Counted from the stretch's first letter, positions 13,124 to 60,177 are shown. The stretch is 64,000 nt of DNA from a virus (IMGVR_UViG_3300031772_002569:10031-74030), one strand, 5' to 3'. Made by a program: numbers and translations. Notes: a model not told the origin generated them from the letters alone.

Positions 13124-13124
13124 A

Positions 13125-29465: not shown

Positions 29466-29469
29466 AACT

Positions 29470-29772
29470 TTATATTATTTTATTTAAATCGTGAAATTCT
29501 GTGATTATAGATGTTACATTGGATGGAACTCTTAACTGAAGTCCTGGTTCTACACTCAGTTTTCCTTTACCTAAGTTGTTTGATAGAGCAATTATCCACC
29601 ATAAGGTAGGATCATTATAGAATTTAAATGCAAGATTGTCTAATGTGTCTCCATCATTGGATATTAGAATCACATCCGAGTCTTTGGCTGAAATTACTGG
29701 ATATCTGGTTGTCTTATAAACCTTTTTCCCGTCAAACCTTCTATCTACCGGAGTTGATTCGTATCTTCTCAT
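29470..29772 (-). CDS. baseplate wedge protein, LysM-like (T4 gp53 / P2 gpX-like)
   Basis: GDTLDNLAFKFYNDPTLWWIIALSNNL...GLQLRVP. Confidence 0.85.
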   Translation of the reverse strand: MRRYESTPVDRRFDGKKVYKTTRYPVISAKDSDVILISNDGDTLDNLAFKFYNDPTLWWIIALSNNLGKGKLSVEPGLQLRVPSNVTSIITEFHDLNKII

Positions 29773-29776
29773 AACT

Positions 29777-32161: not shown

Positions 32162-32171
32162 AATTTCTTAT

Positions 32172-38005: not shown

Positions 38006-39505
38006 ATGAAAAAAGACCCTATTATAAAAACTTGTAACTTCTGTGAAAAAGAATACGAGATACCTCATAGAAAAAGAAGTATGGCTTCCACACGTCGGTT
38101 TTGTTCTAAGTCTTGTTCCAATAAAAGCCCTGATGTGATTGAAAAGATAAAACAGAAACAGTTGGAAACATATCAGGAAAAATACGGTGTTAGTCATCCC
38201 ATGAAAACTAAGGAAGTTGTTTCTAAGTTCAAATCATCGATGAAGGAAAAATATGGAGTAGAACATGCTTTATGTTCTTCTGAGTTTTTAGAAAAATCAC
38301 ATGCCACAAAACTAAAAAAATATGGTGATGTTAATTTTAATAACGTCGAAAAAATGAAACAAACTTGTCTGAAGCTTTATGGTGTAGATAATATAAGAAA
38401 ATCCAAGGATGTTGTTGATATGATAAACACGACTGTAATGGATAAACATTTTGATTATCTTATTAAGGTGTGTAAAGAATGTAATATCGCTCTTCTTTTT
38501 AATCGAAAAGAATACGTTGGGTATCATTTTACAAATTCATACAAGTTTAAGTGTGAAGTTTGTGATAATGAATTTTCTAATTCTGTATATCATCTTTCAA
38601 ATTTGTATTGTAACAAATGTCATCCGGATAAACGTTTAAAATTGGAGGGATCGTTTTTTGAATTTTTGAAATTGATTGTTCCATCTAACATAGAAATTAA
38701 AAGAAGAGATAGGGCTATCTTGTATGGAAAGGAATTAGACTTTTTTATTCCATACAAAAAGATATCATTTGAAATTAATGGTCTTTACTGGCACAGTGAA
38801 TGTTCAGGTAATATATCAAAAAACTACCATCTCAACAAGACTAAGAATTGTTTGTTTCACGGAATAAAGTTAATGCATATTTTTGAAAATGAGTGGATAG
38901 AAAAATCGGATATAGTAAAATCCATAATAAGATCAACACTGGGTTATCAATCCAATAGGATTTATGCGAGGGAATGTGTGGTGGGAGAAGTTTCCATAGT
39001 TGATAAGAATAAATTTCTCAATAACAATCATCTTCAAGGAGAAGACAAATCAACCATAAAGTTGGGTCTGTATAAAGATGATGAATTGATGTCAATCATG
39101 ACCTTTAGAAGAACGTCCAGGTTTGACAAGGATGTAGAATGGGAGTTATCTAGGTTTTGTAATAAGTTAGAATATTCCATCGTCGGTGGAGCTAGTAAGT
39201 TGTTTTCTCACTTTGTTGAAAATCATCATCCAAAATCTATAGTTAGTTATAGCGACCGACGATATTTTAGCGGAGAAATTTATTCCATTCTTGGGTTTAA
39301 TTTTATACACAATACTCCACCAAACTATCACTATGTAACAGATGGATATAAAGGGATAAAAAATAGGATGTCATTTCAAAAACACAAATTAAAAAACATA
39401 TTACCTATTTTTGATGATGGTCTGTCGGAGTGGGAAAATATGAAAAAGAATGGATTCGATAGAATCTGGGATTGTGGACACTCTAAATGGATATTTAAAT
39501 CTTAG
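38006..39505 (+). mobile_element. free-standing homing endonuclease-like gene (Zn fingers, KYG repeats, Vsr/PD-(D/E)XK-like domain, C-terminal Mom/GNAT-like domain)
   Basis: CxxC...FCSKSC, repeated EKYGV units, ELDFFIP...FEINGLYWHS...HIFENEW, WELSRFC...SYSDRR; antisense to its neighbours. Confidence 0.75.
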
Positions 39506-41834
39506 AGTCAATAAATACTTCCAAGTGGTCACATACATATCCTTTGGTTAGACTCTTGGATTTATCTCCGAATTCACCGTTTTTTGAAGTCGTGGACATT
39601 CTGTGTAATTCTTTTCGTAAAGCGTCCCTATATGGGCCTGAATCGGTTTTTACCCACCATCCTTTTTTATCCAGTATGTTTTCTTCCTTTACATGTTCAC
39701 CTAGATGGTGCCACAATGGTCCCTCGTATGTGAATTTCTTACGTGATGAATTGGTGTATAAAAACGTATCGTATTTTTCTTCCCACGACTTATCATCATC
39801 CGCATCTACATCCACGCCTTTTTTCGCTCTTTGAAAAGACCAAGGAGATCCTTCTTCTTTGTCTGTTAATTTTTTATAATCAGGATGTTGATTAGTTATT
39901 TTGTTTCCTTCTTTGTCTTTGACGTATTGTGTTCTTTGTCTCTGTCCTTTTCCTCTACTCTTCGGATCTGTGAATTCGCTTCCTCCTAACAGAAATTTTT
40001 CTATGTAAGGCCACACAAATGCGTAAATACCTTTTTTGGATGGAGGTTGATGGAATGTGGAATCTTCTTCTCTTCCTCCTTTATATCCTTTTTGCTTTGT
40101 TAAACTTAATCCACCGTAAGTTACAAACGTTAACTTTTTATCTTTAAATGGATTATGTTTTTCCTCTTTTATTCCTGTTTTTAATTTGAATGATGGACAG
40201 TGCATAGAATGTTTTAACGTATCCGATGAATCGATACTGCTTTTGTGTTTTTTAATGATTCTTCCTGTTTTGTTTTTTATCCAAATAGATGCTGATTGTT
40301 TAATTTCATCATCTGGATTACCCCACCAAAAAATGAAATCTGAATCCTCTCTCCATCTCCACCTGTCATCGTTTCTGTTATATCCAGGTACTTGAAAATG
40401 AGTCAAAACTTCGTCTGACGAATTTATTGCTTTAACGTTATAGTCATTATCCACGGTTCCTACCCATATTCGAGTTTTGTTTTCTTTATTTTCTTTCAGT
40501 GAAGCTTTTTTGTCATACAACTGATTAATTCCGTCTCTCAATTTTTTAAGTTGGCCAAATTGTCTCAATGACTTGAAAACTATATTTTCATTACTAAATT
40601 CTCCCTTGGAACTAAGCCCCACTTCTCGGTATGCAGTGATAGATTTCATTAATTCTTTAAGGTTTTCTAAGTCTTCTGACTCTAATGAGGATTTTATCTT
40701 GTGACAAATTTGGTGGTATTTTTTCTTTATTAATCCTCTATCGAGTTGTATGTTTTGTTTTTCTGGTTCTTTAACCCATTCATCAGTCAATACTGAATAG
40801 ACTCCTATTGAACGATTGTTGTCGCCTAAATCTTGTATATAAACTTCTACATTATGACCCTTTATTCTTATCGATTCGTGTTCTGTGTTCCATCTGAATC
40901 CATAATTATTCATTATTTTTCTTACATATTCCGGATCAATTTTTTCCTTAGATATGTCAACGACTATATGAAGATCTATGTCGCTGGAGGGAGTCCAGTT
41001 GTAGTTTGCTGAAGAACCTAAAAATAGTATGTCCTCTATTCCTTGTTTTAAATCTGTGTTTTTATAGAAATCACTGGCTACACTTAACAAGCTTTTTCTT
41101 ACTTCTGGTCTAAGTTTATTTTCATCATTCCAAAGATTTTTATCTAAACTTTTATTTACCACTCTCATTTTGGATTCTGCAATAGAACCTTTCATGTAAT
41201 TGGCTTGAGCTATGCTTTTATAGTCTCCTTGTGCTTGTATTTTTTTTGCGTATGAATTTTTAATATTACTCTCTAATTCATCGTCAGTCATTCCTACACT
41301 TTGTTGTAACGATTTTATCTTTTTTCTTAGAATTATTTTTTCGTCTGGAGTAGCAGTGTGTAATTGTATGATTAATGATATTAACTCTTTTCTGATATCC
41401 TGACTCATTTCCTTTGAATTTGTAGTAATTTTTGGTTTCCATTTTTCTAGGTATCTACTATTCGAAAATTCCCAATCAAATTCTTTTATGTTTAATCGTA
41501 ATTTTTTAAACATATCCTCTATTACTTGATGATATTTATAGGTAGTTTCTCGGCTATCATATACCGATGCTATATAATTTTCCGGCCACATGCGACCACA
41601 TACTAATTCTTTAGAGTAGTCTGAGGGGTCTATTGAATCTCTTAACGATTCGTGCCATCCATGAATGTAATCAGTACTGGTATGGATACATTTTATTTGT
41701 GTATCAGAACCATTACGTGATTGATATACCAAGAAAGCAACATTCGGCTTTTGGTCTGAACAACTTATTATTTCTTCTCCATTGAACGAGACTGTATCCG
41801 GATCTTCTTTTAAGATGGGGACTTTTGTATGCAT
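39495..41834 (-). CDS. multidomain protein with a Pol-beta-superfamily nucleotidyltransferase domain (putative polyprotein)
   Basis: GSSANYNW...SDIDLHIVVD, VEVYIQD, GEFSNENIVFKSLR; segments separated by ILKE, IAE, LKE and IKE. Confidence 0.8.
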   Translation of the reverse strand: MHTKVPILKEDPDTVSFNGEEIISCSDQKPNVAFLVYQSRNGSDTQIKCIHTSTDYIHGWHESLRDSIDPSDYSKELVCGRMWPENYIASVYDSRETTYKYHQVIEDMFKKLRLNIKEFDWEFSNSRYLEKWKPKITTNSKEMSQDIRKELISLIIQLHTATPDEKIILRKKIKSLQQSVGMTDDELESNIKNSYAKKIQAQGDYKSIAQANYMKGSIAESKMRVVNKSLDKNLWNDENKLRPEVRKSLLSVASDFYKNTDLKQGIEDILFLGSSANYNWTPSSDIDLHIVVDISKEKIDPEYVRKIMNNYGFRWNTEHESIRIKGHNVEVYIQDLGDNNRSIGVYSVLTDEWVKEPEKQNIQLDRGLIKKKYHQICHKIKSSLESEDLENLKELMKSITAYREVGLSSKGEFSNENIVFKSLRQFGQLKKLRDGINQLYDKKASLKENKENKTRIWVGTVDNDYNVKAINSSDEVLTHFQVPGYNRNDDRWRWREDSDFIFWWGNPDDEIKQSASIWIKNKTGRIIKKHKSSIDSSDTLKHSMHCPSFKLKTGIKEEKHNPFKDKKLTFVTYGGLSLTKQKGYKGGREEDSTFHQPPSKKGIYAFVWPYIEKFLLGGSEFTDPKSRGKGQRQRTQYVKDKEGNKITNQHPDYKKLTDKEEGSPWSFQRAKKGVDVDADDDKSWEEKYDTFLYTNSSRKKFTYEGPLWHHLGEHVKEENILDKKGWWVKTDSGPYRDALRKELHRMSTTSKNGEFGDKSKSLTKGYVCDHLEVFIDSKI

Positions 41835-43768: not shown

Positions 43769-44533
43769 TTAAAAACCTTCTCCTTTATTACTTGCATCAA
43801 CGATTCTCTTTATTTCATTTCCGGAATGTTGAATCAGTGATTTTAATCCAAAATGTAAAGGAGATGGCCACCGTCCATATTCTACCCACTTATATTTATC
43901 TGTTTCCCAATTTAATTTTGGGTCAAATTCGTCATCTACAACGGCTAAGAAATTGTGATATTGGAATCCGGATTTTTGGTCTTTGTAAACATACAACGGA
44001 ATAAGTTTTTCAATTATTCCCCTAAACCCTACTTCTTCGGATGCTTCTCTTGATACAGCCTGTGATGGATTTTCACCCGAGTCAATTGCACCACCCCACA
44101 CACCCCAAGTTTCAGGTTGTAAAACCATAGCTGATCTCAACGGCAAAAGAAGTCGTCCGGTGGTTTTTGCCATAAAAATACAACCAGCTCCCTGTTTTCC
44201 CCAAAAGCCCGTTTTGACCAAAGCATCTCCGTGTTCTGAATCGGATTCTTTTAGGACTCCTGAAATCTTATCAACCAACGCATCATATTCAGTATCCTCA
44301 GGTTCTTCTTGGTATTCTTTTTCTAACACATCTCTAGCTTTTTGTAATGCACGAAATACATCCAATCGGTCATTTGTCTTCAACGCACGGTCGATAAACT
44401 GAACAGCGACCTGCATATCCAAAATAAAGTCTGCCACGGAATCATCCGCCACCGATATCATATCCATTAGTTGTTCCTTAGCCTCGGCAAGTAATTCTAT
44501 CAATTCATCGTTTGTCATGTCAACCCTTTCCAA
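43769..44533 (-). CDS. Nudix hydrolase with N-terminal helical domain
   Basis: Nudix box GGAIDSGENPSQAVSREASEEVG, LNWE, LHFGL; VLKE linker before the Nudix domain. Confidence 0.88.
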   Translation of the reverse strand: MERVDMTNDELIELLAEAKEQLMDMISVADDSVADFILDMQVAVQFIDRALKTNDRLDVFRALQKARDVLEKEYQEEPEDTEYDALVDKISGVLKESDSEHGDALVKTGFWGKQGAGCIFMAKTTGRLLLPLRSAMVLQPETWGVWGGAIDSGENPSQAVSREASEEVGFRGIIEKLIPLYVYKDQKSGFQYHNFLAVVDDEFDPKLNWETDKYKWVEYGRWPSPLHFGLKSLIQHSGNEIKRIVDASNKGEGF

Positions 44534-45609
44534 TCTCCAACTATTTTTTCATCCCAATACAGAATGTTTACAATTTGTTTGTTTCTGAAAAACGGATGTG
44601 ATTTAATATAATCATCAACTTTAGGGTTATGATGCCAAGAAGAATGTTTTGTATCGTCGGAAATCATAACCTCAATCTCCTTACCCCTAACTACGTAAAT
44701 TAATATAGAAACGTAATCCGCGTCAATACGTTTTCCAAGAAAATTTCTAACTTGATAATGATATGCGACCATTCGATTCCACACATAGGCATTTTTGCCT
44801 GAAATAATCAATCCATACTGGTCATGTGCTACACATTCTTTTACCTCCCTATCGGTTGGGTCTATAAAAACTTCTACATAATCTGACTTGCCGGCGATGT
44901 TTGTCGTGAAAGAACTCAAAAACGATTCCCCTATGGTTCCCAGATTATGGATTCCCTTCGCCTGATAATCTCTTATGTCATTTAAAGTGGAATCCCCACC
45001 TTCTACGAACCAACGAGACATAGAACCCAGGCCATGAATAAAATTCAAAAGTTGGTCCATTTTTATAATTTTCTTTTCTGGCTCCCGTTCAGACTCAACA
45101 CCAACAGCTATTTTATACAAAGTCCTACTCCTATCGCTATACCTACCATTTCCTCCGGATTCCATCTCTCCAGTGTTTCTAAACCTGTTGGAACCCGACT
45201 TATCAGATATAAAAACGAACCACCTATCCCATTCCTCTTCTGTTATATCTTTGTATTCATCCTTTTCAAAAAAGCTAGCAGCCGCATTACCATCTTTTAT
45301 ATCACTGTTGATTAAAATTTTAATGATTGTAGTTCTAAGAATTGACCAAATCTTTTCTAATAACTTATCATCAACCCTACTATATTTTACAAATTTTGCC
45401 CAAACCAATTTCAAATCCCTCGCCGGAACCAACTTCCAAGATTGATGTTTTTGACCAGATTGAAATTCTTGCCTAACATCTTCCTCGACATCCGTGAAAT
45501 CCCTCACTAACTCACGTGCATGGGGGTTATGACCACCGATATTAAGATGAAGTTGATCAGATTCACCAATACACTGGTCAACCATCTTTTGTAATTCAGA
45601 TTTTTTCAT
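44515..45609 (-). CDS. hypothetical protein with MKKSELQKMVDQCIGE leader (two domains split at TIGE)
   Basis: Leader-type N-terminus; TATTTATT upstream. Confidence 0.75.
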   Translation of the reverse strand: MKKSELQKMVDQCIGESDQLHLNIGGHNPHARELVRDFTDVEEDVRQEFQSGQKHQSWKLVPARDLKLVWAKFVKYSRVDDKLLEKIWSILRTTIIKILINSDIKDGNAAASFFEKDEYKDITEEEWDRWFVFISDKSGSNRFRNTGEMESGGNGRYSDRSRTLYKIAVGVESEREPEKKIIKMDQLLNFIHGLGSMSRWFVEGGDSTLNDIRDYQAKGIHNLGTIGESFLSSFTTNIAGKSDYVEVFIDPTDREVKECVAHDQYGLIISGKNAYVWNRMVAYHYQVRNFLGKRIDADYVSILIYVVRGKEIEVMISDDTKHSSWHHNPKVDDYIKSHPFFRNKQIVNILYWDEKIVGDWKGLT

Positions 45610-45690: not shown

Positions 45691-48600
45691 TTAAGCGTTT
45701 GGAAAGCTAGCACCCGTAGGGAGCACGTTGAAATCCAACACTATGAATTCTGATGTTCTTGTTGGCTTAATATAGATTTGACCATACAAGACGTTTCTAT
45801 CGATGATATCAGGAGTATTGTTTTCTTCATCCATTTTAACGAAGAAGGCATACAATCCGGACCTTTGTTGAACAGATTCCATATAAGGATTTACAACGCT
45901 CAAGAACTTGTTTCTTGTGGCAGATGTGTTTTGTTCAAATGTCAAGAACTTCGATGTTGAAGCAACGAACTTCTTTAGATTGATTAACAACCTACGAACA
46001 CTGATACGATCCAAAGCCGTAGAGTCATTTTGAAGAGTCTTTTGACCCCAAACAACAACTCCCTGACCAGGGAACGAAGCGATAGGATTAACCTTACCCT
46101 CATACAACGTATCACGTTCTTCGTGAGTAGTTCTATCAGTTACTTGAACAGCGATAGCGATTCCACCACGATTCAATCCAGCAGGAGCATACCATTCGGC
46201 AGCAACCTTATCGTTAGCAGCGAACACAGATGGTAACACAACCGAAGGAGGAACTGTTACAATTTTATTTGTATTAGTGTCAAGAATCTTGACCCAAGGA
46301 TAATAAGCACCAGCATAGTTGGTGTCATATTCGGCTGCATCAGCAACGACTTCATCAATTTGACCGCTGGTTGGATTACCGTCATCCACATACAAATCCA
46401 TGATAAAGAAACAATCTCCACGAGCCTCACACATATCAACTACCAAGTTGGTAACATAAGGATGATGTTGATGAACAATACCGGGAACAACAATCAAGTT
46501 GATATCAAATTCGTCTGCATTTCCCAAAGCGGTTATTGCTTGATTATAAGCAATCGAACCGGCTGAAGAAATACTTGTACAATTTAATCCTTGTGTGTTT
46601 CCAGGAGATATATCACCACCAACGTTGATTGGAGTAGCAGGAGATTGACCGTCAAATCCTCCTTGGAATCCAACCACGAACTTACGCATTTTAACGTAAG
46701 TGGATTCGTTAGCTGAATCATACTCAGAAGGAACAATGTTACTTCCCGTAACCAATGAACCAGTTCCGACTCCGTATAATCTGTAGTCATCATCAAGCGA
46801 GAATAGGATATTTCTTCCAATCGAACCGTAAGAACCAAATTCAGGAAGTGGGCTTAGGTATTGAATGTTATCGTCAGCCGCTCCAATTCCAAGAGAGGAA
46901 GTTGGATACAAAGATGACAATTCCGCGTCAGCTCCGGTAGGAGCATCGTCGAAAACTATACCTGATGGATACTTTCCAGGATTCAAACCATAGACAGAGG
47001 CCTTAGAATACTTGAGTGTAGGAATCCAATTTCCAGCGCTGCTGTTCACAGGAACAGACAAAGCCTCAAATCCGTAAGGAACCACAGACTCAGGAACAAC
47101 AGAGTCAATCATTTCGATACGAACATTTTTGCTGTTATTCGTATAGGTTCCAAACTCAATGATCTTGCCTTGGAAATTAATGTAATTATATCTATCACCC
47201 ACTCTACGAGCAATGAAGTTAGAAGAGTCAGGATTAAGATTAACGTTATTGAACTGTTCCATTATTTGTGGTCGTTTGTCACTATCACTGTATTTACGAA
47301 CAGTTAATGTGAACGAACCCCAATCGCTTCCTGCGACAGTACCTGCCAATTTAACATTGCTTATTTCAATTTTAAATTGTTTGTTAGTGATAGTTCCATC
47401 CGACAACGTATGAACCTTAAACAAGCGGAACCTTGTTGGGTTTTGGCCACTCTGCCAAGGAGCTATCTTTTGGGATACTATCCAAGGAGTAGAAGCGTGG
47501 GTTATAGAGAACTCACTATCACCGTTGGTCAAATCACGGCTGAATTCATCTGTGAAATCAAGCGGATTTCCAATAAAGTTTACTCCATCAGGAAGAACAC
47601 TTCCGGTAATGGCCCAAACAGTATTGTTAGCATACACATCAGCAATGGCGTTATTAAACACCTTGTAAAGATAAGAAGCTTCAATTTTCTGACCAGAAAC
47701 TTGCGTAGCAGGGTCACCTGCGGTAGCAGAAAGTCCGAATACATTGGTGATATACTTGGTGCTAGAAGGATTCAACGAGAACTGATAAGTTCCGATAGCA
47801 GTCGAACTATTAGTGCTTTTCAACGTCAGATTAAAATCTGAAGTAATCGAAGAAGCATTAACATTCGAGCTAGCGGAAATCAACGATGAATTGACGAATC
47901 CAGGAGCCACTAAATCAGAGATGCCTCCGTAAAGGGTATCACCCAATACTGCCAAAACCTTTAATTCAGCAGTAGATGCCGAAGCCCAAGTGTTTGTGCA
48001 AGGATCAAAGGTTGGTTGACCATTCGATGTAAATGTTCCATCATACTTACCAAACGAACCAGATAGAACACCACGCAATTGAATTGTTGGCACTCCACAA
48101 GAACCTGTGGATGTATAGAACGAACCACTTATAAGATGGACTGATAAGAATGGGGCTGCGCCGCCGTTGTTGAAGTTCAATGTTACATCGCTAGAGAATG
48201 AACCACTGAATGTTCCAGCAACGATAGAGGCAGAAAGATTCGAACCAGTAGAAAACAAAGTTGACGTAATCGTTGTATTGCCGAGAGAAACTGTTTGACC
48301 CGAATACAACACGGAACCACTCAAAGATGTTATGCTCAAAGCAGTGTCATCTGCTGCTACAGATTGGAAGGTCACGGTTACGGAAGCGGAATTCAATGTA
48401 AGAGTTCCAGAAGAAATAGATACACTTTGGCTATAATTTGCTGCAATTGAACCAGACAAGGTAATATAAGAACTACCAGAAACTAATGCACCGGCAGAAC
48501 CATTACGATTCCACGTTCCCTTTACACCCCAAATTACGAAAGGATAATTTTGTTTGTATCCGGTCAATCCACCAACACGAACGACGGTAACAAGACCACG

Positions 48601-48855
48601 TTCCTTTAAGTATTCTCCAGCAGTATATGGACCGTAGTAAACACCATCTGGAACACCGAACTGAGATTGAAGATCATTGATATCTGTTATGAGTTTTGGT
48701 GAAAATGCTGGACCTTTAGCGAAAGGTGCCACAACTGCAGCACCAATGTCAGCCACCCCTTGAGCGACCCCAGACAGGTCATTCTCACGCGTGAATACAC
48801 CGGGACTCACAATTCTATCTTCTGGACTGAAACGTCCTCCTTCTTGGATTGGCAT
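45691..48855 (-). CDS. contractile tail sheath protein (T4 gp18-like)
   Basis: SPGVFTRENDLS, KGPAF, YYPWV, VPPS, WYAPAGLNRG, RDTLY..KVNPI, WGQKTLQ, LDRISVRRLL, PTRTSEFI. Confidence 0.95.
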   Translation of the reverse strand: MPIQEGGRFSPEDRIVSPGVFTRENDLSGVAQGVADIGAAVVAPFAKGPAFSPKLITDINDLQSQFGVPDGVYYGPYTAGEYLKERGLVTVVRVGGLTGYKQNYPFVIWGVKGTWNRNGSAGALVSGSSYITLSGSIAANYSQSVSISSGTLTLNSASVTVTFQSVAADDTALSITSLSGSVLYSGQTVSLGNTTITSTLFSTGSNLSASIVAGTFSGSFSSDVTLNFNNGGAAPFLSVHLISGSFYTSTGSCGVPTIQLRGVLSGSFGKYDGTFTSNGQPTFDPCTNTWASASTAELKVLAVLGDTLYGGISDLVAPGFVNSSLISASSNVNASSITSDFNLTLKSTNSSTAIGTYQFSLNPSSTKYITNVFGLSATAGDPATQVSGQKIEASYLYKVFNNAIADVYANNTVWAITGSVLPDGVNFIGNPLDFTDEFSRDLTNGDSEFSITHASTPWIVSQKIAPWQSGQNPTRFRLFKVHTLSDGTITNKQFKIEISNVKLAGTVAGSDWGSFTLTVRKYSDSDKRPQIMEQFNNVNLNPDSSNFIARRVGDRYNYINFQGKIIEFGTYTNNSKNVRIEMIDSVVPESVVPYGFEALSVPVNSSAGNWIPTLKYSKASVYGLNPGKYPSGIVFDDAPTGADAELSSLYPTSSLGIGAADDNIQYLSPLPEFGSYGSIGRNILFSLDDDYRLYGVGTGSLVTGSNIVPSEYDSANESTYVKMRKFVVGFQGGFDGQSPATPINVGGDISPGNTQGLNCTSISSAGSIAYNQAITALGNADEFDINLIVVPGIVHQHHPYVTNLVVDMCEARGDCFFIMDLYVDDGNPTSGQIDEVVADAAEYDTNYAGAYYPWVKILDTNTNKIVTVPPSVVLPSVFAANDKVAAEWYAPAGLNRGGIAIAVQVTDRTTHEERDTLYEGKVNPIASFPGQGVVVWGQKTLQNDSTALDRISVRRLLINLKKFVASTSKFLTFEQNTSATRNKFLSVVNPYMESVQQRSGLYAFFVKMDEENNTPDIIDRNVLYGQIYIKPTRTSEFIVLDFNVLPTGASFPNA

Positions 48856-51357: not shown

Positions 51358-51588
51358 TTATTTTCTTTTGTTTTGTTGTTTTAATATTGTTAAAGCTTCT
51401 TTACAAGCTTGGTTAAACATATCCCTACTTGGGGAGTCCGCTCTAAAATTTGTCTTCAATAAATCGTAAGCCCTGCCGATATCGCCACTCACAAAATCGG
51501 ATTCTTCTTCTACGTTTTGGACCATACTATTGACCCAATTTATCCAATTCTGGTCCTTTATCTCTTTTACGATAGGTAATAGTTTCAT
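51358..51588 (-). CDS. small hypothetical protein (MKLLPIVKE leader)
   Basis: 76-aa ORF in the neck operon. Confidence 0.65.
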   Translation of the reverse strand: MKLLPIVKEIKDQNWINWVNSMVQNVEEESDFVSGDIGRAYDLLKTNFRADSPSRDMFNQACKEALTILKQQNKRK

Positions 51589-51589
51589 A

Positions 51590-52759
51590 TTATCCTATAT
51601 AAATAAGCAATGGAACTCTCTTTAATGTATCTTGAACGAATTCAGCCTCCCTAGCGCGATCTTCCATTTGTTGTTTCTTGCCAGTGGCCTCAAGACTTTC
51701 CCTCAACTCGGTTATATATTTTTCTTTTTCCTGTTGTGCTTCATTTCTAAGTTCCGCACCATCGAGAGTAACCTCTCCTCCAGGAATAGGAATGGTTTGG
51801 TATTTTTGTCTAATTGAACCAAGTAGTTCCTTACATAGAGCAAGAAAATACTTCCTAATCCATTGCTTACTAACATCGTTGATAGATCCATACACGATGT
51901 TATTATATGGAATATTTGAGAAATCGGATACAAATTGTCCAGCAGAACCAGATTGGAAAGACCCGCTAAATCGTTCATTCTTTACGACATAATCGAAATA
52001 TATACGAAACTGACTCTGAGGTATAGGAAACAATCTTAATTTATTGTTGACTATTTCAAAGGAAAAAGCAGACTTACGAACCATATCATTGAATTCAATA
52101 GCTTGACCACGAAGCAAATCTTCGAAAATAGGAGTCATAAGAAACTGAACAGCGGGAGAATATGCACCAAATCCCAACTCATTCAAAACATTAGAATAAC
52201 TCATACCAGTCATGGAGAATGGATCGTAAATACGAGCCATAGCAGGAGTTCTTTCATTAAAAACCCTCATCACATCGATTTTATTAAAACTTTCAGATAC
52301 GTTACCCCACAAGGATTGAATGTCGTATGTTTGTTGATATGGAACAGTTGTAATAGATCCGCGTTTCCAATCGGTATTTCCACCAACACCAACTTCTGTT
52401 CCGTATCCCTTTGCCAACTCCACGATAACAGACATTGGGGTTCCGGTTACGTTTTGTCCGGACAAATTACCTATTTGATTAATATTCTGTCCTTGAAATA
52501 CCTGAATGTAATTACGAATATTGAACTGATTTAACTGAGCACCAAACTCATTGACAGCTTCTTCAAAACACGCATAGAAATTTTTATCCAACATTTCTAT
52601 ATCAACAACGGGATATCCCAACCTCAAAGCTGCCCATACAGCCGCGCCCATCGCGTCTGATTGAAATTCTATATCAGAATCATAAATTCCGAATGGTGTG
52701 CTGCTAGAGACTGCCGAACCGGACCCGGGCCACCTCACCCTATCTTGGTCAATTAACAT
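51590..52759 (-). CDS. neck / head-tail adaptor protein (T4 gp13-like)
   Basis: LRLGYPVVDIEM, CFEEAV, WIRKYFLALCKELLG.IR.KY..IPIPGGEVTLDG. Confidence 0.85.
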   Translation of the reverse strand: MLIDQDRVRWPGSGSAVSSSTPFGIYDSDIEFQSDAMGAAVWAALRLGYPVVDIEMLDKNFYACFEEAVNEFGAQLNQFNIRNYIQVFQGQNINQIGNLSGQNVTGTPMSVIVELAKGYGTEVGVGGNTDWKRGSITTVPYQQTYDIQSLWGNVSESFNKIDVMRVFNERTPAMARIYDPFSMTGMSYSNVLNELGFGAYSPAVQFLMTPIFEDLLRGQAIEFNDMVRKSAFSFEIVNNKLRLFPIPQSQFRIYFDYVVKNERFSGSFQSGSAGQFVSDFSNIPYNNIVYGSINDVSKQWIRKYFLALCKELLGSIRQKYQTIPIPGGEVTLDGAELRNEAQQEKEKYITELRESLEATGKKQQMEDRAREAEFVQDTLKRVPLLIYIG

Positions 52760-53730
52760 ACAACCCCCTTATTATCAGATACATACATCATATTATGATT
52801 GAATTTTTTGATAGGAAAAACTTTGGTTTTATCTTTATTCCAATCATACCAATCTTTTTCCCACATATAATAAATATGATAACCTAATTCGTTTAATCTA
52901 TTAAACTTTTTGATTGTGTTATCATATAATTCTCCAAAAGTTTTATGACATTTTTTATTAAATTTAGAATGTTCATATCGTATGGGATTTCCATGATAGT
53001 AATCTCCTAAGAATTCATAAATCTTTTTTCCTTTTATTCCATCTACTTTAAACGGATGAATTACCTTTTGTCGATTTTCTATCAAATCAGGTATTCTAAT
53101 ATAGTTTAAAAATTCAATTTCTGGTTTAGATATTTGTGTGACACATTTTAAACATCCCTTTCCTTCCATGTGTCCCCTCGCTCTCTGATAAAACCATCCA
53201 TGAATAGGACATTTTATTTTGACTTTAGTTCTATTATTGATATAATTTACTTGGGAATAGTCATACTTGTTTTTGTGAATAATGTATGATTGTTTTATAA
53301 ATTCATCTTTAGTCAATCTTACAGTTCCACCACACAACGGACATCCATCTTCATTTAAATGATCATTTGGAGATTGTGAAAATTTTCCGTGTAATTTACA
53401 TATAATTACCACCTTTTCCCTATTATTATCACCATATTTAACAAATGAATAATCATACTTATTTGTATGACATTTAACTGCTTTTTTTATAAATGATTCT
53501 GTAGTATCTCTAAATTTAATAGATAATTTTTGATTCTTACACTTTGGGCAACCACTTTTTTTACCAATATGATTATCAGAAGAAACCATAAAAGTTCCGT
53601 GAATTTTACAACAAACTTGTAACTTCAATCTAGCAGAAACATAGATTGTATTAGAATAGTCATATTTTTTGTTGTGAACTTCTTTAGATCTCTTTATAAA
53701 TTCCTCTGTAGTTATTCTTGATTTCATCAT
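52753..53730 (-). mobile_element. free-standing homing endonuclease-like gene (three KYDYS...C..HG Zn-ribbon repeats plus Vsr-like nuclease)
   Basis: Three repeats of FIK.....H..KYDYS...Y......I.C..HG.F.....H....GC..C, then KVDG...YEFLGDYYHG...YMWEKDW. Confidence 0.8.
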
Positions 53731-53760: not shown

Positions 53761-53768
53761 TATTTATA
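53761..53768 (+). promoter_or_regulatory. putative late promoter TATTTATA for the enzyme array
   Basis: Same octamer, on the + strand 20 nt before ATG 53789. Confidence 0.6.
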
Positions 53769-53788: not shown

Positions 53789-55558
53789 ATGAAAATTATA
53801 TTATACAATTTAATAAATGAGATTTTGTTAGAAACATCCGACGCAAAATCCACCTTCATTCTCGGTAGAGTTTCCGATGATGGAGAGGTTGACAAATGGG
53901 AATTTGATGATACGGTAACTGCCACACATCCTTCGACTTGGTATTCAAGTCACTATGAACGTTGGAGATATTACGCAGGCAGTCAATACATTTATTGGTG
54001 GAGTCTGCCGTCTCAAATTCAAAAAGAATCAGTAGAATATTTCATAGGATCAAGAGGATTTGATGTAAAAGGGCATAAAGCCAACATACACTTTTTATCA
54101 GATTTTAGTAAAGTAACAGGTTATAAACTCACAGAAAATATGTTAAATGAAGGAAGAAAAGAAAAAGCAGCAGAAGACTTTATCAAACAGACCATAAAAG
54201 GAACTCAGTGGCAAGGTAAAGTTTTCATAGCTGGTGGTTACGTCCGAGATGAATTTATGGGCAAAGACCCAAAGGATTTGGATTTGTTAGTAAATACACC
54301 AAACGGAGGAATTGAATTTGCAAACTGGATAACCAGAAAAATTGGTGCATACAAAGACGGAAGCAATCCGGTAACGTTTCCTCGTTTCGGAACAGCCAAA
54401 TTTAATCTTTTCGGTGTAACTCATGACGGAATTGATTTGAGTGATATGGATATTGAAGCAGTAATGCCTCGTAAGGAACAATACACAGCAGGAAGTAGAA
54501 AGCCAGATGTTACTGGTGGAGAATTAAAAGACGACGTAGAAAGACGCGACTTCACAGTTAACTCATTATTAAAAGATTTAAGTACCGGAGAAATCTTAGA
54601 TTTGACGGGTATGGGAAAAGATGATATCAAAAAAGGTATTGTCAGAACTCCATTAAATGCCGATAAGATTTTTACCGACGACCCTCTTAGAATGTTACGT
54701 GCGGTTCGTTTTGCCATGAAATACAAATGGAAACTTCCCATGTTCATGATTCGTGCATTAAAGAAGAATGCTCCACAACTTAAAAACATTTCACAGGAAC
54801 GTATTCGTGATGAATTGGACAAGATGTTAATGACAACGAACCCCCACGGTTCAATAAAACTCCTAAAGGTTGCTGGATTGTTATCCCATGTCATTCCTGA
54901 ACTTATACCAGCAGTAAAGATGAAACAGAACATCCATCACAAACACGATGTATTTCATCATATTCTTGATGTTCTATCTAAGTCTAATCCTGTACTAGTT
55001 CAGAGATTAATGGCCTTATTTCATGATATTGGAAAAACTGTAACCAAGAGTGTGACTCCAACAGGAGTTCATTTCTACGGTCACGAAATGGTTGGATCCG
55101 ACATGGTAGAATCCATCATGACAAGGTTGAAATACCCAAGAGAATTAATCGATGCTGTAAAATTAGGTGTAAGAAACCACATGCGATTAAAGTCAGCAGG
55201 AGATACAGGAATAAATATATCAGACAAAGCACTTAGAAAATTCAAATCTGAAATTGGAGATAAGATAGAAGACGTATTAGCAGTAATCCATGCTGATAAC
55301 ATTTCTCATGCGGATGCTTCAGCGATGCCTAATCAAGTAAACAATCTCAAGGTTAGACTCGATAACCTAAATATGAACGTTGCCGCTGGTGGAAAACCAA
55401 AACTTCCTATTACCGGAAACGATTTACAATCCATCGGATTAAAACCAGGTCCAATTTACAGTGAAATAATGAAAGCTGTAACAGAAGCTTGGTTTGAAAA
55501 TCCAAACATTACAAAGGAACAGGCATTGGAAATTGCAAAGTCTGTAGCAAAAGTATGA
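53789..55558 (+). CDS. cca: CCA-adding tRNA nucleotidyltransferase with HD domain and an extra N-terminal module
   Basis: AGGYVRD...KDLDL, FGTA, DVERRDFTVNSL, DDPLRMLRAVRF, ISQERIRDEL, HHKHDV..H, ALFHDIGK. Confidence 0.9.
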   Translation: MKIILYNLINEILLETSDAKSTFILGRVSDDGEVDKWEFDDTVTATHPSTWYSSHYERWRYYAGSQYIYWWSLPSQIQKESVEYFIGSRGFDVKGHKANIHFLSDFSKVTGYKLTENMLNEGRKEKAAEDFIKQTIKGTQWQGKVFIAGGYVRDEFMGKDPKDLDLLVNTPNGGIEFANWITRKIGAYKDGSNPVTFPRFGTAKFNLFGVTHDGIDLSDMDIEAVMPRKEQYTAGSRKPDVTGGELKDDVERRDFTVNSLLKDLSTGEILDLTGMGKDDIKKGIVRTPLNADKIFTDDPLRMLRAVRFAMKYKWKLPMFMIRALKKNAPQLKNISQERIRDELDKMLMTTNPHGSIKLLKVAGLLSHVIPELIPAVKMKQNIHHKHDVFHHILDVLSKSNPVLVQRLMALFHDIGKTVTKSVTPTGVHFYGHEMVGSDMVESIMTRLKYPRELIDAVKLGVRNHMRLKSAGDTGINISDKALRKFKSEIGDKIEDVLAVIHADNISHADASAMPNQVNNLKVRLDNLNMNVAAGGKPKLPITGNDLQSIGLKPGPIYSEIMKAVTEAWFENPNITKEQALEIAKSVAKV

Positions 55559-56403
55559 TCAAATTAAAAAATCTCATAGATGAAAATGTAATAGACACAC
55601 TACAAACGATTGGTGATTTTAGTAAAGGTTCTTCTTTTACTAATAAATCAGACCGTGCATTAGTCACACATCCTGTAGCCGTCCAAAAGATAAAAGATTT
55701 TTTCAAGAATACAAAAGAGAACTTTGACTTATATTTCGTAAATACAAAACATGCTAGAAAATATATGGAACTAGGAGAAGTTAAAGAGAGTTTTATTTTT
55801 GATGATTTAAAAGTTACTCCTGACCAATTAAAAAACGGAGAAATTAATCATAATAACATTACAGTATTTTTTACCAACAACAAAGGAGATGAAAGAGCAC
55901 CTTTTACTCCTTGGATTATGGCACATAGACTCGGCCATGTAATAAGGCGAGTCTATACATGGGAAAAAGAACTAAATCCCTGGATAAATAAACATCTTAT
56001 TGACATATTGAATTCATACGGAGTATCACCAGTAAAATACTCCCCCTATAGTTACGGAAATGATGGAAGTGGTAATTATGCATCTTTTAGACGATATGAA
56101 TTGGCCAAACGTCATCTATGTGAAACCCTCGGAACATTCAAAAGTGCAAGAAATAAAAATCTAAGAAATTATGGAGAGTTTAACTATGAATTATTTGCAC
56201 AATATCTAAAAGACGGAAAGATAACTCTAAACAATCTTCCTGATGTCTTATTGATAGGACACGCTGCGTTTGGAAGAAAAGATCTAAGAAGATTGAAAAA
56301 TAGGGAACATGCAGATGAGTCTTTGACCGAACTAAGAGAGAATTATGAGTATCATGCAGAATCAGTATTGAGCGAATGTGTAGGTAAAATATTTGTGATG
56401 TAA
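55555..56403 (+). CDS. MIKLK-leader protein with degenerate zincin-like motif
   Basis: Leader MIKLKNLIDE; WIMAHRLGHVI and downstream ELFAQY. Confidence 0.75.
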   Translation: MIKLKNLIDENVIDTLQTIGDFSKGSSFTNKSDRALVTHPVAVQKIKDFFKNTKENFDLYFVNTKHARKYMELGEVKESFIFDDLKVTPDQLKNGEINHNNITVFFTNNKGDERAPFTPWIMAHRLGHVIRRVYTWEKELNPWINKHLIDILNSYGVSPVKYSPYSYGNDGSGNYASFRRYELAKRHLCETLGTFKSARNKNLRNYGEFNYELFAQYLKDGKITLNNLPDVLLIGHAAFGRKDLRRLKNREHADESLTELRENYEYHAESVLSECVGKIFVM

Positions 56404-56404
56404 C

Positions 56405-57088
56405 ATGATAAAGTATGCAAAATCTAAATTTGGCAGAATTCGTTTTGAATATAAAGATGCCGCTGACAAATCAGTAAACAAAGGATGGGTGGTAGATATG
56501 GTGAATGCATATATTGACGACAAGCCAATAGGATATTTAAAAATATCTTATGTTCCCGATTCAAATGTCAAAGACGTATTTCCGGATGTAATTCATTATC
56601 TTGGTTCGGAACATAAAGGATTTAGTAAATTAAGGGCTGCTTTAATAAAAGACGATAAAAAAAATATAACTCGTGCATTATCACAAATGCAAGACCCCTG
56701 GAGTCAATGGATAGAAAATCTCGAAAGCAGAGGGGAATTAAAAGGAATGGATCAAAACTGGTGGGATGAACAATATAAAAGATTAGAAAAGGAAGTCACA
56801 GAAAGACATAAAAAAGATTACGAACAATTTTTGGATGATGTCCATAACAAACCATTGGTGGATTACATAAAAGTAGAAAAGGATTATCAACAAGGCGGAA
56901 TTGGTTTGGGATTGTATATTGCTGGAGCTACATGGATGGCGAAAAAGAGAATGTGTTTATTTGCTTCATCATTACAATCTCCTGAGGCTAAAAAAAGTTG
57001 GGATAAGATGAAACGAATTGGAATGCCCATAAAAACCGTAAAACAAAAAAACGGACGAATTAGAACTTGTTTAGATTATAGAAAGTAA
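56405..57088 (+). CDS. GNAT-like acetyltransferase
   Basis: IGYLKI...VDYIKVEKDYQQGGIGLGLY...SSLQSPEAKKSW, a GNAT acetyl-CoA loop pattern with a helical insertion. Confidence 0.65.
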   Translation: MIKYAKSKFGRIRFEYKDAADKSVNKGWVVDMVNAYIDDKPIGYLKISYVPDSNVKDVFPDVIHYLGSEHKGFSKLRAALIKDDKKNITRALSQMQDPWSQWIENLESRGELKGMDQNWWDEQYKRLEKEVTERHKKDYEQFLDDVHNKPLVDYIKVEKDYQQGGIGLGLYIAGATWMAKKRMCLFASSLQSPEAKKSWDKMKRIGMPIKTVKQKNGRIRTCLDYRK

Positions 57089-57089
57089 C

Positions 57090-57497
57090 ATGATAAAACT
57101 AAAAACATTAGTAACAGAGAATTTAACAAAGAGAAAGTATTCAGGAGTATCATTGGATTCTGAGTCTCATAATAAGTTAAAAACACACTTCTCTGATAAA
57201 ATTCCAGAAGGATGGGAAATCATAGCCCATCACATGACCATAAATCCATTTGGTCCCACACCAGAAGAATTGTTAAATAAGAATGTCACATTAAAAGTTA
57301 CCGAGGTAGGTAAAAGCGACAAAGCCTTGGCAGTAAAAGTATCAGGATATGAAGGCAAAACAAACAACAAGTTTCCTCATATAACGATTGCTATAGATAG
57401 AAATGGTGGAGCCAAACCCAAAGATTCAAATGATATTGTTCATTGGGAGCCAGTAAGAGATGATATTTATCTTAAAGGAACCATAAAGGATTTATGA
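57090..57497 (+). CDS. 2H phosphoesterase (tRNA-ligase CPDase-like) with MIKLK leader
   Basis: Two HxT motifs (HHMTI, PHITIA) and KPKDSNDI..W. Confidence 0.78.
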   Translation: MIKLKTLVTENLTKRKYSGVSLDSESHNKLKTHFSDKIPEGWEIIAHHMTINPFGPTPEELLNKNVTLKVTEVGKSDKALAVKVSGYEGKTNNKFPHITIAIDRNGGAKPKDSNDIVHWEPVRDDIYLKGTIKDL

Positions 57498-57787
57498 TAA
57501 AATTAAAATCATTACTAACAGAAAATCAAAGAACATTCCGAGGCGACTGCCGAACTATTCTTGATAGAGATGATTTGTTTGATGACGCCACAGAAATGGC
57601 GCAAGCGGTCGAGAATAGTGAGGCCATAACATATCAACAATTTATGAGTTTGGCAGACCTAACCGGGATAAATAAACTTTTCAAATTGAAATTAAGAAGA
57701 GAAACCGACCATTTTGATTTTGCACAGTATAAGGATTTGGTATGGGCATACGATAAAGATACTGACATACACTATTTCTTTTTATGA
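57494..57787 (+). CDS. MIKLK-leader hypothetical protein
   Basis: Leader MIKLKSLLTE; C-terminal YDKDTDIHYFF. Confidence 0.75.
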   Translation: MIKLKSLLTENQRTFRGDCRTILDRDDLFDDATEMAQAVENSEAITYQQFMSLADLTGINKLFKLKLRRETDHFDFAQYKDLVWAYDKDTDIHYFFL

Positions 57788-58341
57788 TAAAACTAAAGGA
57801 TATACTTTTAGAATCTGTACAGGCAATAAACCCGCCTGCACAGATTCAACCCCATATTCAATCTGTATTTGATAGATCTTTTATAGATTACATAAAATTT
57901 GTAGAAAATGGGAATCGTGTGGGATATGATAAAAATAAAAAACTTTGGTTCCCCTATGCGAAAGCAGAGAATGGAAACGTTGTCATTGCTTATGGTCACA
58001 AAAGCAAATCACCAATTGAGACAAAATCACTAAAAAAAGGCATAACCGATGACCAAGCAGAAAGACTGTTAATATCGGATTTAGAGATTGCAAAACAATT
58101 AGTGAACAAATACATTGAAAAGAAATATAAGGTAAAATTGTTACTGGATAAGAATCAGAATGAAATTCTTACAGACTTTGCATTCAATTTAGGTGGATTA
58201 GAAAAATTTCCCAAATTTGTAGATGCTGTCTTGAAAAAAGATTGGAAAGTAGTCAAAAAAGAATACAAAAGAAACACGGATGGAAACATGTTAACCAAGA
58301 GAAATCAAGAATTTTTTAATAGATATTTAACACAATTATGA
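57784..58341 (+). CDS. phage lysozyme (GH24-like) with MIKLK leader
   Basis: IKFVENG, IAYGH, GITDDQAERLLISDL, LTDFAFNLG..L.KFPKF..A....DW, RN. Confidence 0.8.
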   Translation: MIKLKDILLESVQAINPPAQIQPHIQSVFDRSFIDYIKFVENGNRVGYDKNKKLWFPYAKAENGNVVIAYGHKSKSPIETKSLKKGITDDQAERLLISDLEIAKQLVNKYIEKKYKVKLLLDKNQNEILTDFAFNLGGLEKFPKFVDAVLKKDWKVVKKEYKRNTDGNMLTKRNQEFFNRYLTQL

Positions 58342-58880
58342 TAAGCCTATCAAAAATATTAAGCGAAGAGAGAACCAGTGAGAGTATAGAATACGGGTGT
58401 CTCATGGCCGAAATACCTGCATCCATTTGTAACAAATTAGTTACATTCGGAAACAAATTAATTTCGGAAGAAGATTTGTATAAAGAAGGTGAAGAATTTG
58501 GTAGAGAAAAAGAATGTCATGTAACCATCAAATACGGATTCACAGGAAATTTAAATGCAGAAGATATAAAATCAATATTGGATGGGGTGGTAGATTTTAA
58601 AATATCAATCAATAAAATTGGAATGTTTTCGTCAAAAGATAAACCATTTGATGTCGTAAAATTTGACGTGGTAAAAGATGAAGCTTTGATGAAATTGAAT
58701 AAGAGATGTAATGAATTTCCTCACGAGGATACCTATCCTGGATACAATCCACATGTAACTATTGCCTATGTCAAAAAAGGTAAATTTAAACATGGTGAAA
58801 TACCTATTAATTTGGTGATACCAATACATACGGTTTGTTATTCTACTGTAGATAATAAAAAATCCTATTACAAGGTATGA
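58338..58880 (+). CDS. 2H phosphoesterase, Acb1/T4 gp57B-like, with leader
   Basis: YGCLM, CHVTIKYG, FDVVKFDV, YPGYNPHVTIAY; leader MISLSKILSE. Confidence 0.78.
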   Translation: MISLSKILSEERTSESIEYGCLMAEIPASICNKLVTFGNKLISEEDLYKEGEEFGREKECHVTIKYGFTGNLNAEDIKSILDGVVDFKISINKIGMFSSKDKPFDVVKFDVVKDEALMKLNKRCNEFPHEDTYPGYNPHVTIAYVKKGKFKHGEIPINLVIPIHTVCYSTVDNKKSYYKV

Positions 58881-59659
58881 TTAAACTTAGAGATTTAATT
58901 TTGGAAGGAGAGAACGATAGGATACAATCCGAGGTAGAATCCCTACAAAAAAATCTATATCAAAAATATCCAGAATTACAAGACCTACACATCTACATAC
59001 AATCTAATGGAACATTGTTCATTGGTTCAATAAAGGTTAAATTAGAGTCTCGCAGACAAGGAATAGGCAAAAATGTAATCAGAGACATAAAAAAATTTGC
59101 CGACGACCATAATCTAATAATTGTTCTAGCTCCGGAGCCAGAAAGAGGATACAAAAAGAAGTTAGATAGATTTTATAAGGATTTAGGATTCATTCCAAAT
59201 CAAGGAAGACAAAAAAATTATGGATTATCTTCTTTCTTCGGTAAAACAATGTATCGTAAACCCGGAGTAAAGGAAGACATAAATGAAGAAATTCCTGATG
59301 TTTTTTATCATGCTACGTTCAATGAACTGATACCATCAATCAGTAATAAGGGATTGGTTCCAGGAGGCATAGATTATCAAAATTTTGAAGGATGTGAATC
59401 GGGAGTTTATCTGTCTGACGATTACTCTTTTGCGGGAAGTATGATAGAAGGCGGTTCTGAAAATGAAGATATTCCAGATGAATGGTTTGATAATATAGTA
59501 GTAATATTGATTGACCCAAATAAACTAGATTTGACCAAGATGGAAAAAGACCCACATGTAAACATATCCGCCGACGACGAACACATACCTCGTTCTTTTA
59601 TATATAAAGGTATTATACCAACCAGCGCTTTTATAGAAATAGTCGATTTCAGTGGATAA
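58877..59659 (+). CDS. GNAT plus ADP-ribosyltransferase/Tpt1-like fusion with MIKL leader
   Basis: IKV....RRQGIGK...LDRFYKDLGF (GNAT); linker VKEDINEE; FYHAT...SI...GL.P...GVYLS...IYKGIIP (ART fold). Confidence 0.72.
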   Translation: MIKLRDLILEGENDRIQSEVESLQKNLYQKYPELQDLHIYIQSNGTLFIGSIKVKLESRRQGIGKNVIRDIKKFADDHNLIIVLAPEPERGYKKKLDRFYKDLGFIPNQGRQKNYGLSSFFGKTMYRKPGVKEDINEEIPDVFYHATFNELIPSISNKGLVPGGIDYQNFEGCESGVYLSDDYSFAGSMIEGGSENEDIPDEWFDNIVVILIDPNKLDLTKMEKDPHVNISADDEHIPRSFIYKGIIPTSAFIEIVDFSG

Positions 59660-59709: not shown

Positions 59710-60177
59710 ATGAGTGATATAGTTTGTCAACGATGGGGATCTACAAAATTTCCCTGGAAGAAAGCTAATTGGAAATGGAGTCAATGTCCATCAATTACGC
59801 CTCCGTTTCCAGGTAAACGTATTTGTCATCGATGGGGTACGACAAACATTAAATGGAAAAACGCCGATTGGAAGTGGTCGGAATGTCAGTTGGTCGTTGA
59901 AGTATTACAGTTTTTAAATACTGGAATAGACGCAACTACGTTAATACCACCGTGGTTAAGACAGCCAGATAGACCGATTGATGATATTCCTCCTTGGGAA
60001 AAAAACAAGGAGAAAAAGAGGCGGCTGATACGACTGATTTGTAAAGTAAAAAACGAAAAGTATGACGAGAGTAAAGAACTAAGAGATGATATCAAAATAA
60101 AAGCAGAAGATATTCAACTCATTATAAAAGCTACTCTAGGAATCGAAATTGATGTAAAAGATAAATTGAAGGAATAA
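59710..60177 (+). CDS. hypothetical protein with duplicated Trp/Cys motif
   Basis: C.RWG.T...WK.A.WKWS.C occurs twice; tandem TATTTATA at 59695-59708. Confidence 0.75.
   Translation: MSDIVCQRWGSTKFPWKKANWKWSQCPSITPPFPGKRICHRWGTTNIKWKNADWKWSECQLVVEVLQFLNTGIDATTLIPPWLRQPDRPIDDIPPWEKNKEKKRRLIRLICKVKNEKYDESKELRDDIKIKAEDIQLIIKATLGIEIDVKDKLKE

Follow-up and report, generated by a model that had tools for sequence, protein, structure and literature searches.

In a 64,000-nucleotide stretch of viral DNA (IMGVR_UViG_3300031772_002569:10031-74030; "the window" below means this whole stretch), positions 53789-59659 of the plus strand hold eight genes in one tight unit, seven of which encode proteins that start with a common short leader peptide. 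By analogy with phage T4, we consider it likely that this leader, M-I-K-L-K-x-L-L-x-E, acts as a capsid-targeting propeptide of the T4 type, which a gp21-type prohead protease would remove, and the tagged proteins are probably enzymes carried in the virus particle. Comparison with other phages showed that the leader is a clade-wide tag found on more than 100 unrelated cargo families, that it is selected at the protein level and that it is tied to T4-type head modules. An earlier note on this DNA had proposed a generalised T4-like tag for capsid targeting and cleavage; the core of that proposal gained support from several independent comparative results, while packaging, cleavage, injection and early action are drawn from the T4 analogy. 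The six leaders quoted in the note were all present where it had placed them, as read from translation:

55555-55584, plus strand, leader MIKLKNLIDE
57090-57119, plus strand, leader MIKLKTLVTE
57494-57523, plus strand, leader MIKLKSLLTE
57784-57813, plus strand, leader MIKLKDILLE
58338-58367, plus strand, leader MISLSKILSE
58877-58906, plus strand, leader MIKLRDLILE

These leaders have the common form M-I-[KS]-L-x-x-[LI]-[LIV]-x-E, are equally 10 residues long and each begin at the first possible start codon of their open frame. A regular-expression search for the leader over the whole 74,030-base contig returned exactly these six; the reversed sequence had none, and mononucleotide shuffles averaged 0.185 each. 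Positions 7-10 read [LI][LIV]xE in 6/6 leaders, which would correspond to the gp21-type cleavage motif (L/I)-x-E. Codon choice differs among the copies (ATC/ATA/ATT, TTA/CTA/CTT, GAA/GAG) and the DNA 5' of them is unrelated, and therefore the conserved element is the peptide and not the DNA. The first gene of the unit, at 53789, starts with MKIILYNLINEILLE, an 11-residue form (MKIILYNLINE) followed by ILLE; this is regarded as a diverged leader because the closest homologue (P0135) has a near-canonical leader, MVIKLSNLLSEIILED, in the same place. The gene at 56405 retains only MIK of the leader, in accordance with the earlier note.

The spread of the leader was assessed by a census of IMG/VR with a degenerate DNA leader pattern, which gave at least 120 loci of about 9.5 kb each (1.14 Mb) and at least 183 leader open reading frames (ORFs) of at least 50 amino acids (aa). 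Among these 183 ORFs, 36 lay outside the seeding pattern, as compared to 1 in the reversed control, and in 169 no Met of the open frame preceded the leader; 50 of the 120 loci contained between two and five leader genes. Across 182 unique leader proteins, positions 1-5, 7, 8 and 10 were nearly invariant (MIKLKDLLxE) and positions 11-20 unconserved; Glu10 was kept in all 182, and conservation ended sharply there. Leu4 was encoded by TTA, CTA, CTT, CTC and TTG, thus by both Leu codon families, and Glu10 by GAA and GAG. Variable codons for fixed residues indicate selection on the peptide. The proteins behind the tag are highly diverse: 191 leader proteins formed at least 108 BLAST clusters, including 71 singletons, and Pfam recognized about one fifth of 102 cargo representatives, with families including ADP-ribosyltransferase (ART), Zeta toxin, MPTase-PolyVal, SprT-like, lysozyme, Mom, NUDIX, RNase_T, HD, LysM, OmpA and cell-wall hydrolases. 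The claim that unrelated domains follow the leaders was hence borne out by Pfam, PHROG and BLAST clustering. Two cultured phages carry the tag, Microcystis phage Mel-JY01 with four leader genes in a row, at 60276, 60923, 62056 and 62733, and Flavobacterium phage immuto with one, gene 41, and complete or large IMG/VR genomes hold 2 to 8 leader genes apiece, with 0 in the reversed controls. The pattern was found 0 times in about 3.5 Mb from eleven other large phages, namely T4, RM378, five Kyanoviridae, three huge-phage genomes and Atu_ph07. Since Atu_ph07 carries no MIKLK-type leader, the proteome published for it has no bearing on the tag. Among the 120 loci listed for matches of the same strict pattern to prokaryote genomes, 100 were without a leader ORF of 50 aa or more, 19 held one and one held two; leader arrays are absent from the prokaryote genomes in these 120 loci.

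The link to T4-type head assembly is supported by several observations. In the T4 record, ipII and ipIII start with MKTYQEFIAE, in line with the statement of the earlier note on T4 internal proteins, gp24 starts with MAKINELLRE and Alt with MELITELFDE; these propeptides and MIKLKDLLTE are all 10 residues long, hydrophobic (Φ) at positions 4, 7 and 8, and have Glu at position 10 (M-x-x-Φ-x-x-Φ-Φ-x-E). According to published work, the propeptides of T4 direct their proteins to the scaffolding core, and gp21 then cuts them off (PMC3012670, PMC5694885). Peptidase_S77, the family of the prohead protease, was present in 8/9 other leader-bearing records, among them each of the four with a completeness of at least 90%, and in two related contigs (G005 and G002) leader genes have the prohead protease on one side and the scaffold or capsid genes on the other. 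Moreover, 40 of the 120 leader loci contained a head-module gene, 29 of them the protease, as compared to 0/120 prokaryote control loci. Capsid genes of the clade were found in 14 of the first 120 leader loci; the encoded protein is about 32% identical to T4 gp23, over the aligned C-terminal part only. When capsid N-termini were aligned, the T4 gp23 cleavage site FLTE|AEIGG (E65|A66) stood opposite QL[LI]xE|[AS]xxTG in 13/13 clade capsid proteins, which suggests that the site of the clade's protease is Φ-Φ-x-E, as in leader positions 7-10. Additionally, in the AlphaFold model of the 282-aa product of gene 55555 (predicted local distance difference test, pLDDT, 90.2), residues 1-9 scored below 50, and the leader is thus predicted to lie outside the fold. 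Taken together, the T4 form, the co-occurrence with Peptidase_S77, the gene position, the matching capsid site and the leader outside the fold tie the tag to the prohead.

Following this, we propose that the leader would dock the tagged protein onto the prohead scaffolding core during head assembly, after which a gp21-type (Peptidase_S77) protease would cut behind Glu10, at the hydrophobic-hydrophobic-x-Glu site. The mature enzyme would stay in the head with the DNA and, in the last step, be delivered with it into the next host cell. Docking, cleavage, retention, injection and early action are all modelled here on T4, in which IPI and Alt provide the precedent for injection and action in the new host cell (PMC3012670; T4 record annotation). 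The seven tagged products of the window might accordingly form a pre-made kit of RNA- and cell-wall-directed enzymes.

Variants of the tag were seen beside capsid genes. In the related huge phage LR756508.1, uncultured and 484 kb in size (177696-183575; L153), about six paralogues lie straight after the capsid gene and start with a 9-residue variant tag (MRLKEILLE, MRLKNVLLKE, MKLKGILKE, MKFKELLKE), so that the tag appears to evolve with the head; a YRGT motif common to these paralogues may indicate an ART-like fold, recalling T4 Alt. In Mel-JY01, the gene right after the capsid gene (26740-27465; L122 6755-7480) starts with MISLKSLIKH, with His instead of Glu10, and has its next Φ-x-E site, LRE, at residues 17-19; its C-terminal half is, by eye, hydrophobic and rich in Ala and Gly. 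It is possibly a variant form of the leader in which the cut site has moved. Different, longer amphipathic N-termini that end in hydrophobic-x-Glu occur in window genes (MKKSEFKKLIKE, MKRSDLKSIVSE, MHTKVPILKE and MKLLPIVKE), and in the related contig G004 at least 10 head-module genes (L143) have MK[IL]TK[ST]xL[KR]xIIREEIQ in common. These N-termini resemble a second leader class, which might serve core or scaffold proteins. The window genes concerned are:

12611-13382, minus strand, longer amphipathic N-terminus
36617-37291, minus strand, longer amphipathic N-terminus
39495-41834, minus strand, longer amphipathic N-terminus
44515-45609, minus strand, longer amphipathic N-terminus
51358-51588, minus strand, longer amphipathic N-terminus

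The eight genes of the array and the octamer that precedes them are as follows (source of the assignment in brackets):

53761-53768, plus strand, octamer TATTTATA, 21 nucleotides upstream of gene 53789, candidate promoter for all eight genes
53789-55558, plus strand, CCA-adding enzyme or poly(A) polymerase with HD domain, 589 aa (Pfam, PHROG)
55555-56403, plus strand, leader and 272-aa domain of a large uncharacterised phage family (homologue search)
56405-57088, plus strand, GNAT-like protein of 227 aa, leaderless, MIKYAKSKFG... (ESM Atlas)
57090-57497, plus strand, leader and small 2H-phosphoesterase-like domain (Pfam, PHROG, motifs)
57494-57787, plus strand, leader and 87-aa domain, no assignment (Pfam, PHROG)
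57784-58341, plus strand, leader and phage lysozyme domain of T4-lysozyme type (Pfam, PHROG)
58338-58880, plus strand, leader and 2H phosphoesterase of LigT or 2'-5' RNA ligase type (Pfam, PHROG)
58877-59659, plus strand, leader, GNAT acetyltransferase domain (about 30-130) and C-terminal Tpt1/ART-fold domain (about 140-260) (Pfam, Foldseek)

The product of gene 53789 matched PolyA_pol (9e-19), PolyA_pol_RNAbd, tRNA_NucTran2_2 and HD in Pfam and tRNA nucleotidyltransferase in PHROG (2e-57), and carries an N-terminal extension of about 140 aa. When the array DNA was compared to cultured phages, only the core of this CCA enzyme was matched, in two unannotated 735-kb records. A BLAST-cluster link between this enzyme and the L041 leader protein was set aside, as the first 170 residues are not involved. 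For the 282-aa cargo of gene 55555, 327 homologues were found, and among the best 120 of these 327 the leader stood at residue 1 in 73; in homologues with an inserted N-terminal domain the tag is still at the extreme N-terminus. H124 and H128 are invariant in this family. Foldseek gave no match at E <= 0.001 for its model, and VIA-align gave zincin-like peptidase matches with Z of at most 3.9, which is too weak for a family name. Homologues of this cargo were absent from Mel-JY01, immuto, LR756508, LR756501 and Atu_ph07.

The leaderless gene 56405 had no Pfam or PHROG match, and a feature search of the ESM Atlas linked it at 0.95 to viral GNAT clusters, with GNAT in the structure rows; a GNAT-like product is thus a lead from the protein atlas and not proof. 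Gene 57494 likewise matched neither Pfam nor PHROG. The translation of gene 57090 contains two H-x-T motifs (HMTI and HITI) and matched the Pfam family tRNA_lig_CPD just below the cut-off (1.5e-4, 21.8 bits) and phrog_36523 (8e-11); it had no match among Protein Data Bank (PDB) sequences. For gene 58338, the search of PDB sequences gave no useful match, the translation contains HVTI twice, and matches were obtained to Pfam 2_5_RNA_ligase2 (PF13563; 9e-9, 35.9 bits against a cut-off of 27) and LigT_PEase (4e-5) and to PHROG RNA ligase (1e-8). Two H-x-T/S-x motifs together with a Pfam match above the cut-off place its predicted product in the 2H phosphoesterase superfamily. The Acb1 model stayed below its cut-off (7e-4, 19.8 bits against a cut-off of 27) and thus gives no support for an identity as Acb1. 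Gene 57784 matched Pfam Phage_lysozyme (8e-10) and PHROG endolysin or tail-lysozyme families, and a leader-bearing homologue of this lysozyme was found in L020. Pfam GNAT matches of gene 58877 were weak, and Foldseek returned GNATs at 2e-4 and tRNA 2'-phosphotransferase Tpt1 (1wfx, 8tfz, 8tg4) at about 1e-3 for a model with a pLDDT of 74, lower in the C-terminal domain. In homologues of its GNAT part, lysozyme or ART-PolyVal domains are fused instead, and in PHROG this GNAT cargo aligned with one stretch of a profile that spans 3925 positions.

CheckV estimates that this linear IMG/VR contig covers 22% of the genome, and the source is therefore probably a T4-like jumbo phage of about 300 kb. 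Its nearest cultured relatives by tail sheath are Mel-JY01 and immuto. The window encodes a 1054-aa tail sheath, a neck protein and a homologue of a T4 baseplate-assembly protein as well as ribonucleotide reductase, a DnaB-type helicase and homing endonucleases. Within the array, 5/7 gene junctions are 4-nucleotide ATGA overlaps. The octamer TATTTATA is over-represented in the window, with 20 copies compared to 8.6 ± 3.0 expected, and most copies lie at most 75 nucleotides upstream of ORF starts of the same orientation, the tail sheath gene included. Positions 53789-59659 contain no copy, and the next ones, at 59695 and 59701, precede the gene at 59710. The earlier note had placed the array behind a late motif: the octamer is indeed there, while for the late role what was found is an over-represented upstream octamer.

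Several findings weigh against the proposal of a capsid-targeting propeptide. The array is flanked in the window by the block of neck-protein and HNH genes and by genes without assigned function, outside any head module, and the untagged gene 56405 sits in the middle of the unit. Neither a Peptidase_S77 prohead protease nor a capsid gene was found in the window's contig; as this contig is a fragment, the missing protease is uninformative, and with the window's own head genes missing for the same reason, the head link comes from relatives. Furthermore, Φ-x-E is a low-information motif, the use of some cargoes in a capsid (Mom, NT5C, the exonuclease domain of a DNA polymerase) is not obvious, no homologue of the 282-aa cargo was found among 50,697 phage records, and a literature search gave no virion proteome for Mel-JY01 or immuto.

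The leader might instead be a docking tag that stays uncleaved on the mature protein and binds a hub on the virion or in the cell, which we consider improbable. Exchangeable tail-fibre and receptor-binding proteins use conserved N-terminal anchor peptides that stay on, other jumbo phages are known to have common N-terminal tags on interchangeable virion proteins, and the array of the window adjoins neck and tail genes rather than head genes. However, the tag ends in Φ-Φ-x-E, the motif that stands opposite the gp23 cleavage site of T4 in the aligned capsid proteins of the clade, its length of 10 residues matches that of the cleaved T4 propeptides, the cargoes are soluble enzymes and not fibres, and relatives place leader genes between the protease and the capsid gene. 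Much less credible is a translation device, in which an A/T-rich initiation region and the ATGA overlap would serve coupled translation without a Shine-Dalgarno sequence and the peptide itself would be functionless. This would fit the overlaps at most junctions, the lack of a clear Shine-Dalgarno sequence before the starts and the fact that an ATGA overlap makes codon 2 begin with A. Contrarily, residues are fixed while synonymous codons vary, including switches between the TTR and CTN families of Leu, Glu10, nine codons downstream, does not vary, the motif is missing from about 60 other genes of the contig, coupled ones included, and the peptide is retained in homologues outside overlapping arrays. 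A recombination joint, with the 30-nucleotide leader block used for cassette swapping like the PeSL elements of T4-type phages and the peptide as a by-product, is given equally little weight as the sole explanation. Array content does vary among related contigs, domains are heavily shuffled and some neighbouring leaders are nearly identical in DNA (G004, at 9615 and 9893), but within the 30 nucleotides most copies have several third-position differences and would be poor substrates for homologous exchange, the upstream DNA is unconserved, and a DNA joint needs no strong amino-acid constraint up to Glu10; exchange of this kind could accompany capsid targeting as a secondary effect. Least probable of all is that the leader is a signal for export or membrane localisation, by which the proteins would reach the periplasm or envelope of the host: cargoes directed at the cell wall would suit this (lysozyme in the window and, in the census, proteins with LysM, OmpA and cell-wall hydrolase domains), but with 10 residues, 3-4 of them charged, and no hydrophobic core the leader is unlike Sec, Tat and lipoprotein signals, most identifiable cargoes are nucleic-acid or nucleotide enzymes (CCA enzyme, 2H, Tpt1-like, RNase_T, NUDIX, Mom), and the tag is tied to head modules.

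Among known systems, a capsid-targeting propeptide is in accordance above all with the capsid-targeting sequence (CTS) of T4, which is carried by IPI-III, Alt and gp24 and removed by gp21 (Mullaney & Black 1996, as cited in PMC5694885; review PMC3012670). As for the T-even internal proteins, which are diverse and have the CTS as their sole common feature (PMC3012670, PMC5694885), the tag is the only common part of otherwise unrelated proteins. A short N-terminal peptide in the T4-type propeptide range of 10-20 aa was found here on unrelated proteins, and its end reads as a gp21 motif. Relatives of the window that carry the leader encode a Peptidase_S77 protease and a gp23-type capsid protein, as T4 does, and enzymes are among the cargoes in both systems: Alt of T4 has ADP-ribosyltransferase activity, and some of the cargoes described here contain ART domains. 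By contrast, the consensus is MIKLKDLLxE as compared to MKTYQEFIAE, the leader is kept across a separate clade, which includes Mel-JY01, immuto and fragments of jumbo phages, the cargoes are much more numerous, with at least 108 clusters, and rich in enzymes, the genes occur in arrays of up to six, ATGA-joined in the window, and no sequence homology to the T4 IP families was seen.

In the phiKZ-like phages SPN3US and 201phi2-1, ejection or inner-body proteins are processed after Glu by a gp21-related protease, and their propeptides are mostly longer than 100 residues, end in (S/A/G)-x-E and have been proposed to act in prohead targeting (PMC5694885). Head-internal proteins cut after Glu by a T4-related protease are also what is proposed here. 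However, the phiKZ-like proteins have no short leader in common, whereas the tag in the window is 10 residues long, ends in [LI][LIV]-x-E and is nearly identical between cargoes. The polyvalent proteins of phages and conjugative elements, reportedly described by Iyer et al. in 2017, are thought to enter cells with the incoming DNA. MPTase-PolyVal (zincin-like), ART-PolyVal, Zeta toxin, SprT-like, lysozyme and GNAT domains are found both in them and among the leader cargoes. Polyvalent proteins are single giant multi-domain chains, whereas the cargoes here are separate small proteins of 97-589 aa, each encoded by an ORF with its own start and stop and each with its own tag. As an analogy only, the cargo-loading peptides of encapsulins are also short terminal peptides that load unrelated enzymes into an HK97-fold shell; these are usually C-terminal, and protease removal, DNA and cell-to-cell delivery are not involved.

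That diverse T-even internal proteins share nothing but the CTS is already textbook knowledge (PMC3012670). Our literature search found no paper on the consensus described here, on its clade-wide spread or on the large enzyme-rich cargo set. More speculatively, and with considerable doubt, MIKLKDLLxE might be an address label, readable from sequence, that marks the entire injectome in a clade of large T4-like phages which is widespread and for the most part uncultured, with hundreds of tagged families acting as pre-made first-strike effectors and the set in the window as a kit for tRNA or RNA repair and nucleotide signals. Such a kit would comprise the CCA-adding/HD enzyme, the two 2H phosphoesterases and the GNAT-Tpt1-like fusion, and could neutralise tRNA-cleaving or cyclic-nucleotide host defences before phage transcription. 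If the leader is a capsid-targeting propeptide, the capsid-shipped proteins of a large environmental phage clade could be listed by a 10-residue motif from sequence alone. The more than 100 cargo families so far, about four fifths of them without Pfam assignment, would then be strong candidates for counter-defence or host takeover, and head-delivered cargo would be widened well beyond the small internal proteins and Alt of T4; the window would add a CCA-adding enzyme, 2H phosphoesterases, a Tpt1/ART-fold domain, GNAT domains and a lysozyme. The prediction can be tested directly in the two cultured carriers of the tag, Mel-JY01 with the host Microcystis elabens and immuto with the Flavobacterium host LMO8, and the tag could serve as a protein-packaging handle in these systems, as the CTS does in T4.

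Some features of the window outside the array were also observed. The tail sheath gene (45691-48855, minus strand) is unusually long for its kind: sheath profiles match only the C-terminal approximately 340 residues of the protein, and the N-terminal approximately 700 residues align, in part, with Mel-JY01 and LR756508 only. Genes for HNH or homing endonucleases lie among the structural genes at 52753-53730 (minus strand) and 38006-39505 (plus strand), with matches to PHROG 681/559 and 3339/559, and one such gene is located directly between the neck-protein gene and the leader array. Four big ORFs of 871, 794, 788 and 746 aa (26850-34538 and 9315-11555, both minus strand) had no Pfam or PHROG match, and no tRNA genes were found in the window. 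On the 3' side of the array, behind its own pair of TATTTATA copies, a gene at 59710-60177 (plus strand) encodes a 155-aa protein without a family match, in which a Trp-rich segment is duplicated (RWGSTKFPWKKANWKWSQCP and RWGTTNIKWKNADWKWSECQ).

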